A stretch of DNA of 32,980 nt, taken from NCBI GenBank assembly GCA_049451655.1, contig JBMTVS010000003.1, positions 1 to 32,980 of the forward strand, read 5' to 3'. Origin of the DNA: Kiritimatiellia bacterium (GTDB lineage: Bacteria > Verrucomicrobiota > Kiritimatiellia > CAIVKH01). The notes under the pieces are model-generated. The model was not told where the DNA came from and searched no databases. It worked only from the letters and a program-made list of their open reading frames with translations. Below are positions 1,388-25,661 of this stretch, in pieces (position 1 is the first letter of the stretch; the number at the start of each line of letters is the position of its first letter). Position numbers and translations under genes: made by a program.

Positions 1388-2836
1388 TCAGGTTCCGCCT
1401 GGCGTGATTTGCATCTGCTCGCGGGCTTTGCGCGCAAGTCGCTCTTCGAATAGTTTGCCGCCCGGGGTCAGTTGAGCCGGGCGAAAAGCAGGCTGCTGAT
1501 AGACTTGGTAGACCACCCGCACGGGGGCGATTTCGAGCGCTACATCCAGCAGTCCGAGTGCGCGCTCTTCGTTACCTTCTTCTGCGTGAAGTAGCGCTGC
1601 ATCCAGCACGGGTTGCGGCCACGCGGGATCAACGGTTATGGCTTGTTGGAGGCGATAAAGTGCGCTGTCGCGATCGTTGGCTATCACCTCCAGGATAGCG
1701 AGTTCGCGGTAGGCGCGAGCATCATCGGGCGCGGTGCGGATACAGGTTTCGAACTGGCGACGAGCATCATCTGCACGACCCATTCGCTGATAAACCAGAC
1801 CGATGTTAAACTTGGGATCCTGCGCTTTCGGTTCCGCTTGCAGCGCGGCTTCAAAATTTTCGAGCGCCTTTTGCGTTTGTCCGGCATACAGGTGTGCCAC
1901 GCCTAGATCATTCAACAACTCGCCAAATTCGGTAGCGGAAGTAAGCGCGGCCTCGAAAAAGCTGATGGCTTTCTGATAGCGGCGCAAAACCAGCAGAAGG
2001 CGTCCGGCCTGCTGGTTGGCGTAGGACATTTGCGGATATAACTCAAGCGCCTCATAATAATGCGCCAAAGCATCTTCGAGCGCGCCCTTGGTCGTGTCAG
2101 CATCTGCTTCCCGCACCAGAAACATGACCCTCGACATGGCATCCTGCGGATCGAGTTTTTCGGTTTTTCCGAAGGGCAATAATCCATCGAAATCCCGCCA
2201 GGACTTTCTGTTCATCCCGAACATGTCGAGAATCGAGGGCATCGAGGATTGGCCAACGCTGGCCGTGATGCTGCGTTGGCCGGACAGGACGCGACGCCAA
2301 TCCTGCCGAATACTCTCTTCCGGCGAGGGTGCCAGCACCGCCTGCAGGTCGGGTGGAACGGCTTTCGATGCATCCGCTGCAGGGGGCGGTAAAGGGATGA
2401 TCTCCTCATTGCTGAGCATGAACTGTGCACGGGTATAGGGCGTGAAAATCGGGGATAAATCGCTTCGCCGTTTTGCTGAAGCAATAGCATCCTCGACCGG
2501 TTCTGACGCGGGCTTGTCCGCCTCGACGGACGGGGACATAGCTTGATGCGGCTTGCTCAAAAGGTCCCCGGGTTGAATGTCCAACATGATGGGAGAGCTA
2601 ATCACGGCGTTAGGCTTTATTGGTTTATCCGGATTAACGGATAAACTGGAGTCGCCGCCTGAAGATGACTGCGCCACATCTTCTATGTCCCCGTTCCGCG
2701 TGAGCAGGTAGATGGTGATTGTGGCGATGACTACGACCAGTACCAAAGATAACAGTTTTTTGGTGTATCCCTTTGTGGTGGAATCGGTTCTGATAACTGC
2801 TGCCTGACGGATTGGTGGGCGACGGGACGGGGACAT
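1388..2836 (-). CDS. Membrane-anchored TPR-repeat protein
   Basis: N-terminal TM segment (LLSLVLVVVIATITIYLL), low-complexity linker, multiple C-terminal TPRs (LLNDLGVAHLYAGQ...A; FNIGLVYQRMG). Confidence 0.8.
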   Translation of the reverse strand: MSPSRRPPIRQAAVIRTDSTTKGYTKKLLSLVLVVVIATITIYLLTRNGDIEDVAQSSSGGDSSLSVNPDKPIKPNAVISSPIMLDIQPGDLLSKPHQAMSPSVEADKPASEPVEDAIASAKRRSDLSPIFTPYTRAQFMLSNEEIIPLPPPAADASKAVPPDLQAVLAPSPEESIRQDWRRVLSGQRSITASVGQSSMPSILDMFGMNRKSWRDFDGLLPFGKTEKLDPQDAMSRVMFLVREADADTTKGALEDALAHYYEALELYPQMSYANQQAGRLLLVLRRYQKAISFFEAALTSATEFGELLNDLGVAHLYAGQTQKALENFEAALQAEPKAQDPKFNIGLVYQRMGRADDARRQFETCIRTAPDDARAYRELAILEVIANDRDSALYRLQQAITVDPAWPQPVLDAALLHAEEGNEERALGLLDVALEIAPVRVVYQVYQQPAFRPAQLTPGGKLFEERLARKAREQMQITPGGT

Positions 2837-3247
2837 AGACGTAACCTAGCGCAGGCCGATCAGCTCCAGTTGGACTTGCAGTCGTTCGGACGAGCCTCGC
2901 CGGGATGGGGACACAGAAATAGTGACCACCCGTAAAGGAGGTTGTGCGGTGGCGCATGCCTCAAGAAAACCGGCAAGGGGGGCAGATTCCACATCTTCGA
3001 GACGCACGTCGTAATGCTCCAGCACGCGACCATCGATTTCGGTGCTTGCCCGCGTCTGGATGTCGGGCTGAGCTCCGGGCAGGTGCGCCCGCAGCATATC
3101 CGCCAGATTGGGCGCGCCTTCAGGCGCACTGGCCAATGCACGGGCGATGGCGGTTTGTCGTGTATGCTCACCGGCCTTCAGTTCCTGCAATGTATTCCAT
3201 TGCGCACGGCGATTTTCGATTTGCCGCCGTTTATCGGCTATGTCCCC
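2532..3247. repeat. Cluster of five GGGGACAYAG motifs
   Basis: 2532-2541(+), 2683-2692(-), 2829-2838(+), 2907-2916(+, GGGGACACAG), 3238-3247(-). Confidence 0.85.
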
Positions 3248-17472: not shown

Positions 17473-17883
17473 TTAGAACGGCATGTGGTCTCCGTCGTCG
17501 TCGTCCATTACGCCAGCGGCCACGGCCTCGGTGCCGGGGCTATCCTTGACGGGGCCGCGCTGAAGAAACTGCACGCGGTTCGCACGGACGCGGAGCTTCG
17601 AGCGCTTTTCGCCGCTGTCCGTGTTCCACTGGTCGAACTGGAGTCGGCCTTCCACCAGAACCGGCGAACCTTTCTTAAGATACTGGGCGCAGGTTTCGGC
17701 GATACGGCCCCAGACGACGATGTCGGCAAAGCAGGCACGCTCGACGAGCTTGCCGTCCTTGTCCTTGTAGTTGTCATTCACGGCCAGGCCGAGTTCCGAA
17801 ACGGCCTGTCCGCCCGGCGTCACGCGCTTTTCAGGATCGCGGGTCAGGTTTCCCATCAGGAATACTTGGTTCATGGAATTCAT
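17473..17883 (-). CDS. ssb: Single-stranded DNA-binding protein
   Basis: MNQVFLMGNLTRDPE, VVWGRIAE...YLKKGSPVLVEGRL, acidic tail ending DHMPF; SD AGGAG before ATG 17883. Confidence 0.96.
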   Translation of the reverse strand: MNSMNQVFLMGNLTRDPEKRVTPGGQAVSELGLAVNDNYKDKDGKLVERACFADIVVWGRIAETCAQYLKKGSPVLVEGRLQFDQWNTDSGEKRSKLRVRANRVQFLQRGPVKDSPGTEAVAAGVMDDDDGDHMPF

Positions 17884-18044
17884 GTTTTTTCTCCTTCTAT
17901 GTTGTTGGTTTTCGTTGTTATGAATGAGCATGTGCTCTATTTCATGATTCCAATTACCAACAGCATCGAGGCGTTCATTTTTGGAAAAATATTTTTCATA
18001 AACTCTCTAAGCTGTTGATATTCAACGAATAAAAATTTTCAAAA

Positions 18045-18875
18045 ATGTCCGAAAACGTGCAAACAACCACGCCGGATACCTGGCGCGCATGGAAGAAACA
18101 TTGTGCCGCGGAGCGATGCGGGGAGGCGGAGGCCGCGATGCTGCGCCGTTTCGGTTCGGCGCGATTCTCCTATTATGTGCAACGTTATGCTGACCGGGTG
18201 GGTCATCGGGGTGGAGCGCTTCGGGTGGCCGAGGCAGCGGATGGCTGGAACTTGCTCGAGTCGCATGTCCAGATTTCAAAAACCCGGCCAGGAAAACGCT
18301 ACAAGGATTGGTTGTTCGCCAGGGCGAAACGGGGCGGCCCGGATCATTTTCTTGCTCTGATGGAGAGCGGGGCCACGCTATTGATGCGCACGGTGGTAAG
18401 GATTTATTTGCGCAAGGAGCATCACGCGCGATTCATGGCCTCGCTACAGGCCCCGCGTGGTGGCACCGACGGCGAGGGGACATACACGCTGGAGGATCTA
18501 ATCCCGGATGCGAGCGCGCACCCGGCGGATGAAGTTTCGGAGCGGGAGTGGCGTGAATTGGCCATCCGGCATGCAACGGATTTTTTTGAGACGATGGAAT
18601 TCCGGGAAGTTGTGACGCTGTGGGCGCGTGGCCGGGGGATTAATCTGTGCGATCGCAGACTGTTAAATTGGGCCGGTTACAGCGAAAGCGCGCTCTATAA
18701 GGAATACCGGAAATTTCTGGAAAAGATGGGGTCGGTGATAAAAAAGTTTTACCCCGAGGAAAGTCCGGAAGCCCTTGTCAGAATGGGGGTTATGATTCAC
18801 GAAGAACTGGGTGTGATGTGCGAGAAAAAAATTTCCGTACAAAAAGGCGTACCTCGTTGCTTTAGGAAAGCATGA
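18045..18875 (+). CDS. Divergent sigma70-family (alternative sigma-like) protein
   Basis: Region-2-like ATLLMRTVVRIYLRKE; region-3.2-like SLQAPRGGTDGEGTYTLEDLIPD...PADEV; region-4-like REVVTLW...AGYSESALYKEYRKFLEKM. Confidence 0.55.
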   Translation: MSENVQTTTPDTWRAWKKHCAAERCGEAEAAMLRRFGSARFSYYVQRYADRVGHRGGALRVAEAADGWNLLESHVQISKTRPGKRYKDWLFARAKRGGPDHFLALMESGATLLMRTVVRIYLRKEHHARFMASLQAPRGGTDGEGTYTLEDLIPDASAHPADEVSEREWRELAIRHATDFFETMEFREVVTLWARGRGINLCDRRLLNWAGYSESALYKEYRKFLEKMGSVIKKFYPEESPEALVRMGVMIHEELGVMCEKKISVQKGVPRCFRKA

Positions 18876-19615
18876 AATTTCCATCCTACAATTTAACGCG
18901 TCATCCCGGGCGCGGCAGGGAACGGGAGAAGTTGGCCGCGTGGCTGGCGGAGCGCGAGCTGGACCAGCACCTGGGCGGCGATGAGCCGCCGGTGAAGGCA
19001 TCAAACATACTGCGGTATGAAATGCAAAAAGACCGCGCTACCTCTGTGCCATTCCAGGCTGGTGACATCGCGCTCTTTAAACCGGCGACGAATGAATCAA
19101 GGGCGTGGGGACCGGTATATGCCTTTTTACTGGAGCGGATCGCGGAAAAGGGTAGATGGCTCGCAGTCCCTTTTTCGCGTTATGCGATGCCGGCGGTACC
19201 GGGAGAATGGCGAACGAAGCTATCGGCGGATGCTCTGCAGGTACTTTGCATATGGAATGCGCGAGAAGTGGTAGAACGAAGGTTTCTGCCCGGAGCGGTC
19301 AAGCACCTGCCTGATGAGCAACGCGAGCGGATTCGCGGCGTGTATCGCGAGGTGTTCGGGTTTCGGGATAGTGCTACGACCGCGTCTTTCAGTGATGATT
19401 TTGGCCCGCCTCTTTTGCATCCGGTTGATCCGCGCTACGCATATCTTGATGAGGAGCGCGTAAGATTGGATGAACACACCGGAGAGGCGGAGGCGCTTTC
19501 AGAGGATGAATCCGACGAGGAGGGTCCGCTTGAAAATGGCTTTTCACCAATTGAAAAGTCGGAGTGGTTATTGGCGGCCGAGGGTCGCCCGAAGTACGGA
19601 AAACCGCCGGATTAG
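18872..19615 (+). CDS. Hypothetical cytoplasmic protein coupled to the sigma-like gene (possible PemK/SH3-like core)
   Basis: ATGA overlap; GDIALF...GPVYAFLL...WLAVPFS pattern; GPPLLHPVDPRY and an acidic tail; no TM. Confidence 0.65.
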   Translation: MKFPSYNLTRHPGRGREREKLAAWLAERELDQHLGGDEPPVKASNILRYEMQKDRATSVPFQAGDIALFKPATNESRAWGPVYAFLLERIAEKGRWLAVPFSRYAMPAVPGEWRTKLSADALQVLCIWNAREVVERRFLPGAVKHLPDEQRERIRGVYREVFGFRDSATTASFSDDFGPPLLHPVDPRYAYLDEERVRLDEHTGEAEALSEDESDEEGPLENGFSPIEKSEWLLAAEGRPKYGKPPD

Positions 19616-20835
19616 CGGGTGGCAACGCGAAGCTTGGTTACGGCATGGCGCAGCGCTTCGCGAAGCCGGGCGTAATCCTCGTCCGTGGTGAAGCGACTTG
19701 AGCTGATGCGGATCACGGCGGCTGGTTGAGGCTGGTCGAGGCCCATCGCGGCGAGCACATGTGAGGGTTCGTGGGCACCAGAGGCGCAGGCGCTTCCCGA
19801 GGAGCAGGCCACACCGGCCATGTCGAGCAAAGCCAGCAGCGGCTCGGTTTCGATACCGGGAAAAATGGCCAGCGTGGTGTTGGGTAGCCGGGGCTGGTTT
19901 TTACCGGCGATGATGGCATCAGGAAACATTTCCAGCAGCCAGTCCTCGAACCCGTCCCGGCGCGTGCGCATTTCATCCGCGCCACCGCCCTTCAACCATT
20001 CTGTTGCCTCTGCCGCAGCCGCCCCGAGCGAGACGATCGAGGGTACCGCCTCCGTTCCCGGACGCAGCCCGCCTTCCTGCTCTCCACCCAGCAATAGCGG
20101 TGAAAATCCGGCTGTATCGCGGATGAAAAGAGCTCCTATCCCCTTGATGGCGTGAAACTTGTGTCCGCAAATCGCCGCCGAGTCCACCCCGGCGCCAAGT
20201 GGGGACATAGCAGTAATTATCCCGTCCGGCAATCCGTGTCCGGATTCCGTGACAGCGGACATACCTTCTATGTCCCCGCCTTGAAAGGGGATTTTTCCGG
20301 CGGCTTGGACGGCGTCAGTGTGGAGCCAGGCCCCAACTTCGCGGGTCAGTTTAGCGACCTCGTGAACCGGGTAAACGACACCGGTTTCGTTGTTGGCCAG
20401 CATGAGACAGACCAGAGCGGTGCGTTCTGTGATGAGGGAGGCGAGCTGGTCGAGGTCGAGGGCGCCATCGCGGTTTACGGGCGCGATATTAATTGTATGT
20501 CCCTTCTTCTCCAGCCGCGCCCGCCAGCCCCACACGGCGGCGTGCTCGACGGCGGAAAAGACCACTTCTCTCCGCTCAGGCCGGGCGGCCAGGGCGGCGT
20601 GGATGGCCATGGCGTTGCTCTCGGTGCCCCCGCTGGTGAAAACCAACGACGAAGAAGGGACAGACCATAAACCGGCGACCTGCTCACGGGCTTTTTTTAC
20701 CGCTAAAGCTGGTGTCCGCGCCATGGCGTGTGGACTGGATGGATTGCCATAATGCTCCCTCATATAAGGGAGCATGGCATCTACCACCGACGGGGTTACC
20801 GCAGTGGTGGCGTTATTATCGAAATAACTTATCAA
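19612..20835 (-). CDS. iscS: Cysteine desulfurase (NifS/IscS group I)
   Basis: YFDNNATT, YGNPSS, FTSGGTES, ANNETG, HTDAVQA, GHKFH (PLP lysine), SSGSAC (catalytic Cys). Confidence 0.93.
   Translation of the reverse strand: MISYFDNNATTAVTPSVVDAMLPYMREHYGNPSSPHAMARTPALAVKKAREQVAGLWSVPSSSLVFTSGGTESNAMAIHAALAARPERREVVFSAVEHAAVWGWRARLEKKGHTINIAPVNRDGALDLDQLASLITERTALVCLMLANNETGVVYPVHEVAKLTREVGAWLHTDAVQAAGKIPFQGGDIEGMSAVTESGHGLPDGIITAMSPLGAGVDSAAICGHKFHAIKGIGALFIRDTAGFSPLLLGGEQEGGLRPGTEAVPSIVSLGAAAAEATEWLKGGGADEMRTRRDGFEDWLLEMFPDAIIAGKNQPRLPNTTLAIFPGIETEPLLALLDMAGVACSSGSACASGAHEPSHVLAAMGLDQPQPAAVIRISSSRFTTDEDYARLREALRHAVTKLRVATR
20201..20277. repeat. 77-bp segment with 10-bp terminal inverted repeats, in frame within the desulfurase gene
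   Basis: GGGGACATAG (20201-20210) and CTATGTCCCC (20268-20277). Confidence 0.8.
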
Positions 20836-20841
20836 ACGTAA

Positions 20842-21807
20842 TCAGGGTGCTGACGTTTCCTCGCCCGTAGTCTCAACGTCCACTTCTGTTTCAGCAGCGG
20901 AATCCTCCGTCCCGGGCGCGGCTTCCGGTTCGCTAATAGCTTCTTCCCCGTCTTGGACTTCCCCGGCGACTTGCTCCTCCGCGACGAGTTCCGCTTCGAC
21001 CTGGTCGGCATCGCTGATCATCTCGTCGATTTCGGCGTCGGTAGGGGGCGCAGCTTCTGTGTCCCCGTCCAACGTGGCGGCCATGGCGGCTAGACGTTCG
21101 ATGGTTTGTTGGATGAGAACTTTCTGCTCTTCCTTCGACCGCTCGGTGGCTTCGGCAATAGCTTCGCGTTCCTCGACCAGGGCCATCTCGCGGCTGGCAA
21201 TTTCAGCGGTTTTTTCGTCGAGCACGTTCCGCACCTCTTCGCGGATCTGGTCTCGCTCGCCACGCACTGCAGTCAACTGCTCCTCAAACGTCCGCGCCAC
21301 GGTTTCCTGCGCGGAGCGATTGGCTTGAAGCTCCTGGCTGATACTTTGCGTGAGCCGCGCGGTCTCTTCACGGGTCGCTGCCACTTCGCCGCGTACATTG
21401 TCCAAACCGGCCGCTTGTTGATCCGCGGCCTCGGATAATGCGGCAGCCGAATCTTTCATGCTGGTCTCGACCGCCGATAGCGAACTGGCGGCGGTATCCA
21501 CCTTTTTGCCTTGCTCGGCGATCAGGTAGGCCACGCCTACCGCGACCAACACCGCTAATGTGCAGGTCAAAATAACATACCGGCTCAAGATGCCCTGTCG
21601 CTTGATGGCCTTGTGCATCTGCGCGATGGCCCGCTCCTGGCGTTCGGCCTCGCGCTGGCGAATCTCGGTCAGCTTGCGAAGCTGCGAAACCGCTTCATTT
21701 AATAAATCCGCCGATACCTCTACCCGGCCTCCCTCCGGCTTGACCACTTCGGCCGCGGCTTCTTCAATACCTGTAGATTCCAAATTTTCGTTTTTTTCTT
21801 CGCTCAT
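20842..21807 (-). CDS. Single-pass membrane coiled-coil protein with acidic tail
   Basis: SD AAGGAG; TM YVILTCTLAVLVAVGVAYLI; long heptad-like helical region. Confidence 0.8.
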   Translation of the reverse strand: MSEEKNENLESTGIEEAAAEVVKPEGGRVEVSADLLNEAVSQLRKLTEIRQREAERQERAIAQMHKAIKRQGILSRYVILTCTLAVLVAVGVAYLIAEQGKKVDTAASSLSAVETSMKDSAAALSEAADQQAAGLDNVRGEVAATREETARLTQSISQELQANRSAQETVARTFEEQLTAVRGERDQIREEVRNVLDEKTAEIASREMALVEEREAIAEATERSKEEQKVLIQQTIERLAAMAATLDGDTEAAPPTDAEIDEMISDADQVEAELVAEEQVAGEVQDGEEAISEPEAAPGTEDSAAETEVDVETTGEETSAP

Positions 21808-21980: not shown

Positions 21981-23111
21981 ATGAGCAATCCCCTCGACAG
22001 CCGCCTCGCTTACATAGCGTTGAACATGCTGGACCAGATCGGCCCGGTTCGCACCCGTAAGCTCATCGCCGCCCTCGGTTCGCCGGAATCGATCTTTGCG
22101 GCCGGCGAGGATAAACTGGTTAAAATCCCCGGTATCGGACGCGACGTTGCCCGCTCGATTATCGAAGGCGGCGAAAAAGCCGATCCCGCCGCCGAGGAAA
22201 AGAAAGCCGCCAAACTCGGCCTGCGCATCATCACATTCCTCGACGACGAATACCCGCCCGCCCTGAAGGAAATCCACGATCCGCCACTCGCGCTCTATAT
22301 TAAGGGTGACATCCAACCCGCCGACCAACACGCCCTCGCCATCGTCGGCACCCGCCACGCCACCCATTACGGCTCCTCGGTCGCGGACCGCCTGGCCTAT
22401 GGCCTCGCGAAGGCCGGGTTTACCATCGTCAGCGGTCTTGCCCGCGGTATTGACACCATCGCCCATCAAGCGGCCCTCAAGGCAGGTGGCCGCACCCTCG
22501 GTGTGCTGGGCAGCGCCATCGACAAGTTCTACCCCGCGGAAAACAAGGAACTCGGCGACCGCATGGCGACGCAAGGCGCGATCATCAGCGAGTATCCGCT
22601 GGGCCGCCCGCCCGATCGCCAAACCTTTCCCTACCGCAACCGTATCGTCGCCGGCATGATCACCGGACTCATCGTAGTAGAAGCCGGCGAAAAGAGCGGC
22701 GCGGTGATCACTGCCAACGCCGCATTGGAGCAGGGACGCCACGTCTACGCGGTCCCCGGGCGCATCGATAATCCCGCCGCCCGTGGCTGCCACGCCCTCA
22801 TCAAAACCGGGGCAAAACTCGTCGAAACCATCGATGATATCCTCGATGACTTGCAGATGCTGCTGCCGAAAAAGATTGACCGACAAGCAACGGAGCTTAA
22901 AAAGACGCCCGATGTGATGCTCTCGCCCGAAGAAGCGGCGGTCATCAAGTCGCTCGGCGGGGGTGGGCGGCACGTCGATGAGATCGCCCGTGATTGCGGG
23001 CTGGCCCCGGCACGCTTGAATAGTTTATTGCTGGGGCTCGAAATGAAAAGGGTAGTGCGCACCCTGCCGGGACGCCTGGTGGAGTTGCGCGATGGATTAA
23101 ACGTGGGGTAG
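21981..23111 (+). CDS. dprA: DNA-processing protein A
   Basis: YPPALKEIHDPP, AIVGTRHATHYG, IVSGLARGIDTIAH, FPYRNRIVAG, VVEAGEKSGAVITA, C-terminal winged helix (LLGLEMK). Confidence 0.97.
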   Translation: MSNPLDSRLAYIALNMLDQIGPVRTRKLIAALGSPESIFAAGEDKLVKIPGIGRDVARSIIEGGEKADPAAEEKKAAKLGLRIITFLDDEYPPALKEIHDPPLALYIKGDIQPADQHALAIVGTRHATHYGSSVADRLAYGLAKAGFTIVSGLARGIDTIAHQAALKAGGRTLGVLGSAIDKFYPAENKELGDRMATQGAIISEYPLGRPPDRQTFPYRNRIVAGMITGLIVVEAGEKSGAVITANAALEQGRHVYAVPGRIDNPAARGCHALIKTGAKLVETIDDILDDLQMLLPKKIDRQATELKKTPDVMLSPEEAAVIKSLGGGGRHVDEIARDCGLAPARLNSLLLGLEMKRVVRTLPGRLVELRDGLNVG

Positions 23112-23120
23112 CAAAGACTT

Positions 23121-25661
23121 ATGTCAAAAAATCTGGTTATTGTGGAATCGCCGGCCAAGGCTAAAACCATCAACAAAATTCTCGGCAAGGATTATCTCGT
23201 AAAGGCCTCCATGGGGCACGTGCGGGATCTGCCGGAGAAGGAAATCGGCGTCGACCTCGAGAAAAACTTCAAGCCGAAGTATGTGAATATCTCTACCCGC
23301 GCGAAGGTGGTTAAGGAACTGAAGGAAGCGGCCAAAGGAGCCGAAACCATCATCCTCGCTCCCGACCCGGACCGCGAAGGGGAGGCCATTGCCTGGCATC
23401 TCAAGGCAGCGCTGAAAGGCGCGGTGCCCGAGGAAGGTTTCCAGCGCGTGACGTATAACGAAATCACCGCCCCCGCGATCCGCGAGGCCTTCGCCAACCC
23501 CCGTCACATCAACCAGCACAAAGTCGACGCCCAGCAGGCCCGCCGGGTTTTGGATCGCATCGTTGGTTACAAAGTCAGTCCACTGCTCTGGCGTCGCATC
23601 CGGGGTGCCTCCAGTGCCGGTCGCGTGCAGTCGGTAGCCCTGCGCATCGTCTGCGATCGCGAAAAGGAAATCTTGAATTTCAAACCCGAGGCCTACTGGC
23701 TCATCGGGGCACGCGTGAAAAAGCAAACCGCACCGACCGATCCCTTCGCGGTGCGGCTGGCCCGCATCGATAACGAAAAAGCGGAAATCAAATCCGCCGA
23801 GCAGGCTGAAGCCATTCGCCGCGATCTCGAAGGACGCAGCATGCGCGTCGCCTCGCTCGCCTCGCGCGAGATTTCCAAGCGTCCGCAGCCCGCCTACATC
23901 ACCAGTTCACTCCAGCAGGCGGGAAACCGCTTTTACGGTTTCGCTCCGACCCGAACCATGCGCATCGCCCAAAAGTTGTACGAGGGCGTCGATGTCGGCA
24001 ATGGCGTGGTCGGTCTGATCACCTACATGCGTACCGACTCGGTCAACATCTCCCCGGTGGCTCAACAGGCCGCGCGCGAATTTATCAATAACGAATACGG
24101 CACCGAATACTTGCCCGACCGCCCGCCGGTCTACAAGAGCAAGGGCGGGGCGCAGGAGGCACACGAAGCGATTCGCCCCACTGACGTCAACCTCACCCCG
24201 GAGAAGGTTGCCCACGCCCTCGACGCCGACGGCCTGAAACTCTACCGCATCATCTGGCAGCGTTTCGTGGCCAGTCAAATGGCCCCGGCCCGCATCGCCC
24301 AGCGTACCGCGGAAATCGAAGCGGTCAGCGAGAACCCCGGACAGGGACACAGCTATCTTTTCCGCGCCTCCGCCTCGGAGGTGATTTTTCCGGGTTACAT
24401 GAAGGTCACCGGTATCGAGAAGCAGAAGAAGAACGAGAACGAAGACGCCGAAGGCGAGGAAGAGGATATCGCACTCCCGCCGCTCACCGAGGGCGAGCCG
24501 CTGGATCACGTCGAGTGGCTGGAAGAGCGCAAGGAAACCCAGCCGCCGCCGCGCTTCACCGAATCCTCGCTGGTCAAGGCGCTCGAAGACAACGGGGTGG
24601 GGCGTCCCAGCACTTACGCGCAAACCGTCTCCACCATCGTCGACCGCGATTACGTCTCGAAGGACAAGCGCACCCTTAAACCGACCGACAAGGGTATGAA
24701 GGTGAACGACTTCCTCGTGCAATACCTGCCCGACCTGTTCGACATCGGCTTCACTGCCGCGATGGAGAAGCAACTCGACGACATCGAGGATGGTCACGTC
24801 GGTTGGACCGACATGATGGCCAAATTCTACGGCTCGTTTACCGGCTGGGTCGATCAAGCCAAAACCCCGCCCGCGAACATGGCGGTCATCGAAGGCTTGA
24901 TCGTGTTGCTCGGCGGGGTCAAGGAATGGGCGCCTGCCACCAAACGCGGCCGGAAGACCTACAGCGACGACGGCTTCGTGGAATCAGTCAAGGAACAGAA
25001 AGCCGCCGGCGACCCGCCCCTGACCGAACGCCAGCAGGAAGCGTTGGTGAAAATGGCCATGCGCTACAAGGACCAGTTACCGGAACTCGAAGCGAAATTT
25101 CACGACCTTGGCTTGGATGAGGAGTTGGTGAAGTTCCATGAAGCGACTCTGCCGCCACGTGCTGAAAGCTTGCTCAAGCTCGAACTCCTGCGCGGCGTCG
25201 AATGTGATCCGCCCCGCCAAGTCGGTAAGAAGACCTACGACGACAAGGAATTTATCACCTCGCTCGACCAACAGGTTCAGGGTGGTAAGCGCCTGAGCGA
25301 AAATCAAATCAAGTATCTCGATCGCCTCGTTTTGAAGTACGCCGAGAAAATCCCCGACTTCGAAAGCCGCAAGGACGAGCTAAAAATCGAAGAGGGGCCC
25401 GCGGTGGAAACCGATCCGGCTGCCGGCGAAATACTCGAGTTGCTAGGGAAAATCACCGCGTGGAAAGAACCGGTCAAGCGCGGCAATCGGGTATGGGATG
25501 ATCAGGAGTTTTACGCTTCGCTCAGCACCCAATTCCGGCAGAAGAAATCGCTCTCCCCCCGTCAGGTCGCGGCTATGCGCAAGATGGCATCGCGCTACGC
25601 TGCCGCCATTCCCGGTTACGGCGACCACGCCGAGCGGCTTGGTCTCAAGCCCGGCAAATAA
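23121..25661 (+). CDS. topA: DNA topoisomerase I
   Basis: LVIVESPAKAKTI, ASMGHVRDL, DPDREGEAI, SAGRVQS, LITYMRTDS (catalytic Tyr), AQEAHEAIRPT, GVGRPSTYA. Confidence 0.98.
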   Translation: MSKNLVIVESPAKAKTINKILGKDYLVKASMGHVRDLPEKEIGVDLEKNFKPKYVNISTRAKVVKELKEAAKGAETIILAPDPDREGEAIAWHLKAALKGAVPEEGFQRVTYNEITAPAIREAFANPRHINQHKVDAQQARRVLDRIVGYKVSPLLWRRIRGASSAGRVQSVALRIVCDREKEILNFKPEAYWLIGARVKKQTAPTDPFAVRLARIDNEKAEIKSAEQAEAIRRDLEGRSMRVASLASREISKRPQPAYITSSLQQAGNRFYGFAPTRTMRIAQKLYEGVDVGNGVVGLITYMRTDSVNISPVAQQAAREFINNEYGTEYLPDRPPVYKSKGGAQEAHEAIRPTDVNLTPEKVAHALDADGLKLYRIIWQRFVASQMAPARIAQRTAEIEAVSENPGQGHSYLFRASASEVIFPGYMKVTGIEKQKKNENEDAEGEEEDIALPPLTEGEPLDHVEWLEERKETQPPPRFTESSLVKALEDNGVGRPSTYAQTVSTIVDRDYVSKDKRTLKPTDKGMKVNDFLVQYLPDLFDIGFTAAMEKQLDDIEDGHVGWTDMMAKFYGSFTGWVDQAKTPPANMAVIEGLIVLLGGVKEWAPATKRGRKTYSDDGFVESVKEQKAAGDPPLTERQQEALVKMAMRYKDQLPELEAKFHDLGLDEELVKFHEATLPPRAESLLKLELLRGVECDPPRQVGKKTYDDKEFITSLDQQVQGGKRLSENQIKYLDRLVLKYAEKIPDFESRKDELKIEEGPAVETDPAAGEILELLGKITAWKEPVKRGNRVWDDQEFYASLSTQFRQKKSLSPRQVAAMRKMASRYAAAIPGYGDHAERLGLKPGK

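Follow-up and report, generated by a model that had tools for sequence, protein, structure and literature searches.

A 78-bp hairpin insertion in frame near the catalytic lysine of a Kiritimatiellia cysteine desulfurase, probably a miniature element of a TIRYT-type family

The stretch of DNA analysed here, which we call the window, comprises 32,980 nucleotides from the genome of a Kiritimatiellia bacterium (assembly GCA_049451655.1, contig JBMTVS010000003.1, positions 1 to 32,980 of the forward strand). On its minus strand lies a gene for a NifS/IscS-like class-V cysteine desulfurase, an enzyme dependent on pyridoxal phosphate (PLP), and within this gene, shortly before the codon of the PLP-binding lysine, a short palindromic element has been inserted without closing the open reading frame (ORF). 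Read on the gene strand, the order of the encoded segments is GKIP-FQG-GDIEGMSAVTESGHGLPDGIITAMSP-LGAG-VDSAAICGHK, with 33 residues from GKIP to VDS and 14 residues from the end of the insert to the PLP lysine. The parts of the locus, in window coordinates, are the following.

19612-20835, minus strand: cysteine desulfurase gene, ORF of 407 residues, frame open through the insert
20201-20277, no strand: inserted hairpin element, 77 bp arm to arm, recognized from a 26-column gap in orthologues and from fold z-scores
20201-20210, plus strand: left arm, GGGGACATAG, a member of a 125-copy family; on the gene strand, the end encoding ..AMSP
20268-20277, minus strand: right arm, CTATGTCCCC, the exact reverse complement of GGGGACATAG; GGG GAC ATA G on the gene strand, encoding GDI
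20255-20264, plus strand: degenerate direct copy, GCGGACATAC, which pairs with the right arm in the predicted fold to give a small terminal stem-loop
20224-20253, no strand: central stem-loop, an inverted repeat with arms at 20224-20236 and 20241-20253
20158-20160, minus strand: codon of the PLP-binding lysine K226 (H225-K226 motif), read from the sequence and the ORF

Both arms and the degenerate copy lie where an earlier reading of the letters alone (the sequence-only reading) had placed them. The net insertion amounts to 78 bp, or 26 codons, the 78th base being ambiguous between the two flanks.

The host gene has the hallmarks of group I of the NifS/IscS family, namely a PLP lysine in an HK motif and a catalytic cysteine loop reading SSGSAC, and H225, K226 and C350 are invariant in an alignment of 42 homologues. 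Its closest matches in the Protein Data Bank (PDB), 5zsp and 5wt2, are cysteine desulfurases. The Pfam family Aminotran_5 matches the protein with 211.8 bits, broken into two stretches, and the top NCBIfam model, FeS_nifS, reaches 393 bits; this and every other NCBIfam equivalog score falls below its cut-off, partly because the insert splits the match. A second Aminotran_5 gene, which we take to be SufS-like, is present in the same genome (C14:5488-6597), so that the cell may not rely on the insert-bearing enzyme alone.

We searched the genomes of 40 relatives for the desulfurase and found a match in 39 of 41 genomes, this one counted; in most relatives the match is broken into query residues 1-184 and about 214-405, which only a few codons separate. 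From the relatives, the best 29 frames orthologous to the gene were then aligned, the five congeners among them at the codon level. All 29 show a gap of 26 columns and have seven residues from GKIP to (V/A)D, and no relative with an equally long loop is among them. The sequence-only reading had set the 33 residues found here against about seven in typical enzymes and had assigned the excess to the segment bounded by the arms, and the orthologues agree with it on both counts. Likewise, 5zsp and 5wt2 align to query residues 4-184 and 213-404, with two residues in place of query residues 185-212. Among the 42 aligned database homologues, the only carriers are the query itself and P0003, a JGI metagenome protein that is 86% identical to it; the other 40 have no insert. 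In P0003 the insert, GDIQVMSAAPAAVGGSAGAVTNCMSP, keeps the ends GDI...MSP and has a diverged interior. Because the genetic code forces it, given an E-to-Q and an A-to-C replacement in the protein sequence (GAA to CAR, GCT to TGY), base pair 10 of the stem would have changed from G:C to C:G, with an extra A:T pair, a change that we deduce to be compensatory. The DNA encoding P0003 was not found: a metagenome scan gave distant homologues and, as L042 and L043, a strain nearly identical to that of the window, and a search of the genus gave the five known congeners. The 26 residues are a true insertion in this lineage.

The insert is not an artefact of assembly, because contigs from runs X2 and X16 and the metagenome contig L042 contain it. 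The contig of the independent run X2 covers 19859-20835 without a gap; that of run X16 covers 20198-20328 with one letter changed; L042 is 99.0% identical, with seven codon differences in the gene, none of them in the insert. One contig from a freshwater run has C for A at window position 20231, inside the insert, which would turn a leucine of the loop into tryptophan, so that the insert varies between populations. Translational bypass or splicing of the insert was considered and is not called for, as two diverged lineages both have an open frame.

Folded as RNA, the 89-nt stretch reaches -47.9 kcal/mol (z -6.75, a value equalled by none of 200 shuffles), and as DNA -23.2 kcal/mol (z -5.27 against shuffles); the flanks of the insert, CAAG and CTTG, lengthen the stem by four pairs. 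By itself, a perfect inverted repeat of 10 bp inside 100 bp is nothing unusual, as 679 of 5000 codon-shuffled versions of the gene have one, and the significance of the element therefore rests on its arms falling at the limits of the 26-residue insertion, on the hairpin fold and on the genome-wide repetition of the 10-mer. Modelling of the loop, as suggested by the sequence-only reading, gave an AlphaFold structure with a mean predicted local distance difference test score (pLDDT) of 90.2 and a predicted template modelling score of 0.89, in which residues 196-210 fall below a pLDDT of 50. The model is consistent with an intact fold that has a disordered loop at its surface and, at that low local confidence, with an insert that is tolerated there.

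The arms are members of a repeat family. Their genome measures 2.2 Mb with 58% GC, in an assembly that is 93.7% complete and consists of 270 contigs. It holds 125 copies of GGGGACATAG (59 plus, 66 minus) where about 5.1 are expected, or one copy per 17.7 kb; GGGGACATAG is its fourth commonest 10-mer and, among the 14 commonest, the sole one that is not a GC-rich simple word. Over 31 genomes, the motif is abundant in this one and in a congener, G005, with 79 copies; the rest have 0-10 copies, and a reversed control pattern occurs 0-11 times. The extended consensus of the family, cGGGGACATAG-M-W-G-y-w-r-T, adds about seven weakly conserved bases to the 10-mer, and the bases that follow the right arm of the insert on the gene strand, GGGGACATAGAAGGTATG, agree with it. 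More broadly, the terminal 25-30 bases of the insert resemble the ends of other copies in the genome (85-93%). Allowing a span of up to 200 bp and up to one mismatch per arm, we counted 31 inverted pairs, 20 of them between genes, seven overlapping a gene end and four inside gene calls; the calls come from a rough purpose-made codon model (1897 genes, 86.5% coding). The pairs fall into size classes of 41-50, 76-78 and 97-114 bp, and those of 97-114 bp share a conserved interior, TTCCAATCGTTGGAAATCAACG... In the sequence collection, 33 places match GGGGACATAG-N57-87-CTATGTCCCC, where about 17 are expected by chance at equal base frequencies, so this count alone means little. Among the matches listed for the 10-mer in the full-text literature, there were only primers and unrelated uses.

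Nine gene calls terminate at the TAG of the motif (e.g. at C4:29221, C13:21582, C15:17993 and C30:5198), so that elements at 3' ends supply a stop codon; the ATG in the reverse arm may act as a start, as in an ABC ATPase gene at C10:18912-18960. Other pairs inside genes were set aside: that in PyrG (C55) lacks an exact arm and looks fortuitous, that on C78 sits in a weak gene call, and those on C171 and C10 lie at or before likely start codons. For the desulfurase, the empty site in all 29 relatives, the 125-copy family of the arms, the open frame, the retained catalytic motifs and the persistence of the insert in P0003 uphold the proposal of the sequence-only reading, an in-frame palindromic insertion comparable to the Rickettsia palindromic elements (RPEs).

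The same motif brackets transposase genes in relatives. At two loci of the congener G005 (L149 and L150), a plus-strand copy lies upstream and a minus-strand copy downstream of a 317-aa ORF; the ORF regions of the two loci share 75.5% identity over 929 bp, and the DNA between ORF and motif cannot be aligned, yet the motif stands on both sides. Both ORFs contain HUH (HYH) and YIxxNP motifs and exceed the cut-off of the Pfam family Y1_Tnp (39 and 34.8 bits, cut-off 23); no helix-turn-helix family of Pfam matched the 317-aa protein at E 0.01. Scanning species genomes with the G005 protein returned 32 loci in Kiritimatiellae, Verrucomicrobia, Lentisphaerae and Victivallales, and the 27 of these with flanks were searched for repeats upstream and downstream. 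At 13 of the 27, the top flanking repeat is an inverted repeat with a GGGACA core, about 115-365 nt upstream and 186-348 nt downstream; of the other 14, three have different repeats of at least 11 nt and 11 have none or unrelated 9-mers. Locus L198 also has a GGGACA-type repeat, beyond the span searched. One Verrucomicrobia genome contains four copies with 91.3-94.4% identity to L194 over 1,309-1,323 bp, whose homology stops at AAAGGGACAGGTAATT ... AATTACCTGTCCCC; a fifth (92.1% over 1,217 bp) begins about 90 bp inside the left repeat, and a sixth is 84% identical. These 1.3-kb copies are transposase-bearing units with terminal inverted repeats (TIRs), and in relatives the transposase gene is tied to the motif. 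Loci L194-L199 and L204 hold at least six copies of the 1.3-kb Y1 element, 84-94% identical to L194 and ending in AAAGGGACAGGTAATT and AATTACCTGTCCCCTTTTT; truncated 3' halves of the element directly adjoin full copies.

In the genome of the window, the sole homologue of the G005 transposase lies on contig C185 (1-720 and 3754-4011), is 50-53% identical, and is bracketed by a different motif, AGGGACAG[AT]CAATTTCC, with three copies upstream and two inverted ones downstream. The 9-nt core of that motif, GGGACAG[AT]C, has 40 sites in the genome, and the gene is split over both contig ends, which suggests at least two copies or a collapsed repeat. The genome also encodes a classical REP-associated tyrosine transposase (RAYT; REP, repetitive extragenic palindrome) of 198 aa at C32:5629-6222, which scores 82.6 bits, above the cut-off, with the NCBIfam model REP_Tyr_transpos. 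Within C32:5330-6650 this gene is flanked on both sides by several GTAG-tagged REP copies (GTAGGGGCCGCGCTCGCGCG...), whose words occur about 20 times in the genome; we rejected it as the mobiliser of the insert, its own flanking repeat being different. The genome holds three separate Y1-transposase/repeat systems.

The motif-bracketed genes resemble the TIRYTs, or TIRtrons, of Di Nocera et al. (2013), presented in the relevant part of that paper (PMC3733652) as Y1 transposases flanked by TIRs with the consensus GGGGWSAS; in the corresponding part of Quentin et al. (2018; PMC6006769), TIRYTs are placed mostly in subclass 2.1. As in TIRYTs, a Y1/HUH transposase homologous to TnpA-REP lies between TIRs, here beginning GGGGACA, and copies end at them (for GGGGACATAG not in the genome of the window); singles, dimers and clusters of the repeats are found as well, in moderate abundance; and the protein is longer than classical RAYTs. 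Set against the consensus as printed in PMC3733652, GGGGACAT agrees at seven of eight positions and the TIRs of the homologues, GGGGACAG, at all eight. Unlike the TIRYTs of these accounts, a cognate gene of the family was found in G005 and not in the assembly that carries the insert, and in-frame intragenic copies are described, in the passages of PMC3733652 and PMC6006769 concerned, for GTAG and CGTC REPs only.

We consider it probable that the 78 bp represent a miniature, non-autonomous element of a TIRYT-type family, comparable to REPINs and to MITEs (miniature transposable elements with inverted repeats), which moved in trans and has been tolerated as a surface loop. Such an element would be built of two inverted transposon ends around a short self-complementary spacer, and its ends, GGGGACATAG with about seven weakly conserved bases, would be the TIRs of the approximately 1.3-kb elements of bacteria of the Planctomycetes-Verrucomicrobia-Chlamydiae (PVC) group, which appear to encode a TIRYT-type Y1/HUH tyrosine transposase related to RAYT and IS200 transposases. 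A TIRYT-type enzyme acting in trans on the hairpin-forming ends, presumably as single-stranded DNA as in its relatives, would have placed the element in the desulfurase gene once its lineage had parted from the congener G005 but not yet from that of P0003; the mobilising enzyme, its single-strand mode and this timing are what we infer. The copy would have brought, by chance, a length divisible by three and no stop codon, and would have landed in a surface turn that joins the strand following GKIP to the one with H225-K226, where a frame-compatible copy would be translated as a disordered loop of 26 residues and tolerated.

Several points weigh against this reading. A transposase gene flanked by GGGGACATAG was not found in the assembly of this genome, from which, given its completeness and its many contigs, the cognate gene may be missing, or it may have been lost. 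The best NCBIfam model for the G005 ORFs is again REP_Tyr_transpos, with 53 and 52 bits under a cut-off of 80, and the eighth base of the motif, T, departs from the S of the published GGGGWSAS. The sequence-only reading had suggested searching the genome for the element; the search finds its ends, which are shared across the genome, and not its interior, of which there was no second copy here or in the five congeners, so that no source copy is known. Neither a target-site duplication nor a defined target could be read, there being no direct repeat that flanks the copies, and the flanking C...G at motif copies just extends the inverted repeat. Translation of the loop and continued activity of the enzyme are predicted points: no joint skipping the insert appeared in four runs, and the metatranscriptome contigs on the gene, from two runs, lie outside the insert (20415-20565; 19612-19853, 19976-20140 and 20757-20835), so that they are silent on its translation or removal. 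Finally, we made codon alignments of motif-bearing genes of this genome with those of the five congeners, and at all seven copies that lie in alignable conserved sequence and show no difference in length at the motif, it arose by clustered substitutions, so that arms could in principle form in place.

The sites converted in place (loci L089-L092) lie in genes for MurA (C240), PrpD (C14, two sites), a GT4 glycosyltransferase (C105, three sites) and CopA (C38, its site 2). Ordinary codons have been replaced there by GGGGACATAG, with up to three residues changed; a GT4 tract agrees over 20 nt with the extended end of the family, and one PrpD site is common to this genome and G005, including a rare ATA codon. 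Three further tested copies, one in GT4 and two in a TPR-protein gene, lie in poorly alignable sequence. Two insertions adjoin motif copies, namely one of 16 aa in frame relative to the congeners in a CopA-like P-type ATPase (L091, C38, codons ~370-386, just after DKTGT) and one of 9 aa in a GH13-like protein whose gene has two direct copies of the motif at a distance of 24 nt (L093, C45, codons ~285-300); we rejected both as hairpin elements, because their folds have z-scores of +0.81 and -1.74 against shuffles, and assign them to no class.

DNA uptake sequences of Neisseria and Pasteurellaceae are over-represented 10-mers that spread in genes by substitution, with a frame bias and frequent inverted pairs. 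The present motif is like them in all these respects, and the insert might accordingly be a pair of motifs upheld by a sequence-level drive, be it a transformation bias of the uptake-sequence kind or a selected host function. The seven length-neutral conversions favour this explanation, as do the nearly equal numbers of copies in the two orientations, the presence of ComEC-like and DprA genes, and the 56 of 125 copies that fall within gene calls (a density of some 29 per Mb, where intergenic DNA has 231 and chance would give 2.3). Genic copies also favour two frames, GDI (19) and xYVP (15), with an excess in codon choice: GGG-GAC-ATA accounts for 24 of 208 in-frame GDI where codon usage predicts 0.9, and TAT-GTC-CCC for 19 of 88 YVP where it predicts about 4. 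However, a drive leaves unexplained both the gain of 78 bp with a self-complementary interior in one step and the Y1 genes bracketed by the motif in G005 and other PVC bacteria, together with the 1.3-kb copies that end at it. The density of the motif is far lower than that of uptake sequences, just two of the 31 genomes searched have it in abundance, and unlike uptake sequences it is directly associated with transposase genes. We therefore think such a drive an unlikely source of the insert.

Less probable still, in our judgement, is a local origin, in which template switching, quasi-palindrome correction or a duplication during replication produced the loop, its arms were converted later, and the likeness to the family is secondary. 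In-place conversion to the motif in other genes, the unique interior of the insert, the four stem pairs contributed by the CAAG/CTTG flanks and the motif-adjacent insertions without a hairpin in CopA and the GH13-like gene would all suit it. Yet motif arms around a variable spacer of 41-124 bp recur about 30 times, mostly between genes; the likeness of the last 25-30 bases to the ends of other copies speaks for the family; and no stretch of the neighbouring gene sequence is directly duplicated inside the insert. That the insert is an ancient loop which every other lineage has lost, or an error of assembly, is scarcely credible: contigs of run X16 do break at the left border of the element, but independent assemblies contain it, and it is missing from all 29 relatives, from the PDB structures and from 40 of the 42 homologues in the databases.

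A miniature element moved in trans thus remains the explanation that we prefer for the desulfurase insert, and it leaves the conversions to be accounted for, since no transposition model predicts length-neutral conversion; the candidates are an uptake-like drive, templated repair at pseudo-ends and quasi-palindrome correction. We suggest, tentatively and with more doubt than conviction, that the motif may spread by a second route, a directional and length-neutral rewriting of coding sequence over tracts of up to 20 nt that changes up to three residues. Element ends might be template-copied into look-alike 'pseudo-ends' after cleavage by the transposase, or a drive like that of uptake sequences might be at work.

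REPINs are inverted doublets of REP sequences tied to RAYTs, according to the parts of Bertels and Rainey (2011; PMC3116915) and Bertels et al. (2017; PMC5581495) that introduce them. Like a REPIN, the insert joins two inverted short repeats and a spacer in one hairpin, and its family shares with the REPIN/RAYT system inverted repeats that flank a Y1 gene and a strong over-representation between genes. Unlike REPINs, it has no GTAG tag, its unit is weakly palindromic, and the desulfurase copy is intragenic; moreover, the transposase homologue is multi-copy in some genomes, and the genome of the window has a separate classical RAYT with a GTAG-REP of its own. With bacterial MITEs, as outlined in PMC10969869, the insert has in common that it is short and non-coding and that its TIRs are those of a larger transposase element; it differs from the MITEs of that outline in that no target-site duplication is seen and in that the enzyme is of the Y1/HUH and not the DDE type.

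According to the passages on them in PMC10969869, RPEs insert in frame in many genes, and the part of PMC3733652 on intragenic repeats reports GTAG and CGTC REPs inside genes of several species, above all in O. terrae, a verrucomicrobium, and R. conorii. In the same part, over half of the intragenic REPs are dimers encoding 20-30 residues, and REP termini often give TAG stops. The desulfurase insert is like these REP dimers and like RPEs (Ogata et al. 2000, as related in PMC10969869 and PMC3733652) in being a palindrome in frame in a housekeeping enzyme, which adds some 20-30 residues and leaves the gene open, and in belonging to a repeat whose terminal TAG stops neighbouring genes, nine in this genome. 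By the descriptions given in these sources, RPEs differ from it in host and in arms, which are unrelated, so that the analogy would be a functional one only; RPE-1 is longer, about 100-150 bp; RPEs appear there without a known transposase, whereas a candidate class can be named here; and they occur in dozens, against one clean case in this genome. Intragenic REP dimers encoding 20-30 residues and RPEs are thus already described, to go by those passages, and an intragenic dimer of this size is less novel than the sequence-only reading had assumed; Additional file 3 of PMC3733652, a list of the target ORFs, could hold similar cases.

The window holds further exact copies of the motif, two of them facing each other in a TPR-protein gene (1391-2845, minus strand) and two more from the genome-wide motif search.

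2532-2541, plus strand, and 2683-2692, minus strand: facing motif copies in the TPR-protein gene
2829-2838, plus strand, and 3238-3247, minus strand: two further motif copies

The pair at 2532-2692 was rejected as a second in-frame element, since the intervening stretch aligns with orthologues. Window genes near the desulfurase (17473-17931, 21981-23111 and 23121-25661) include those for SSB, DprA and topoisomerase I; for the three ORFs that adjoin it (18045-18875, 18872-19615 and 20842-21807), Pfam gave no family. In G005, locus L151 (C39:19388-28185) has eight motif copies in one orientation within 9 kb, unlike the paired layout elsewhere, and our guess from the look of some ORFs (PIN-like, Fic-like) is that the small genes around them, whose function is not assigned, are toxin-antitoxin genes. 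Loci in Isosphaeraceae and Planctomycetota records (L119, L124, L133 and L147, also L126 and L140) carry a family of 77-bp hairpins whose first 10-12 arm bases match the motif, with longer arms (GGGGACATAGCGAATATCGACA...) and A-rich/T-rich flanks; this may be a sister family of planctomycetes.

What the present case adds is a TIRYT-type repeat, and not a GTAG or CGTC REP, as an in-frame insert, its site beside a catalytic lysine, and its retention across two diverged lineages. A central enzyme of Fe-S assembly and sulfur transfer has kept, through divergence at the level of speciation, a hairpin repeat 14 residues away from its catalytic lysine, which amounts to a natural experiment on how far the PLP fold tolerates insertion. 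If the preferred reading holds, an in-frame palindromic insertion would be tied to a specific class of transposase, the TIRYT-type Y1 enzymes found among PVC bacteria. In annotation, inserts of this kind break up profile matches and leave good enzymes short of equivalog cut-offs, as here. The motif copies made by substitution could bear on how REP/TIR-type families seed new copies and, should the second route prove true, either of its causes would be a so far undescribed way for the motif of a mobile element to edit proteins.

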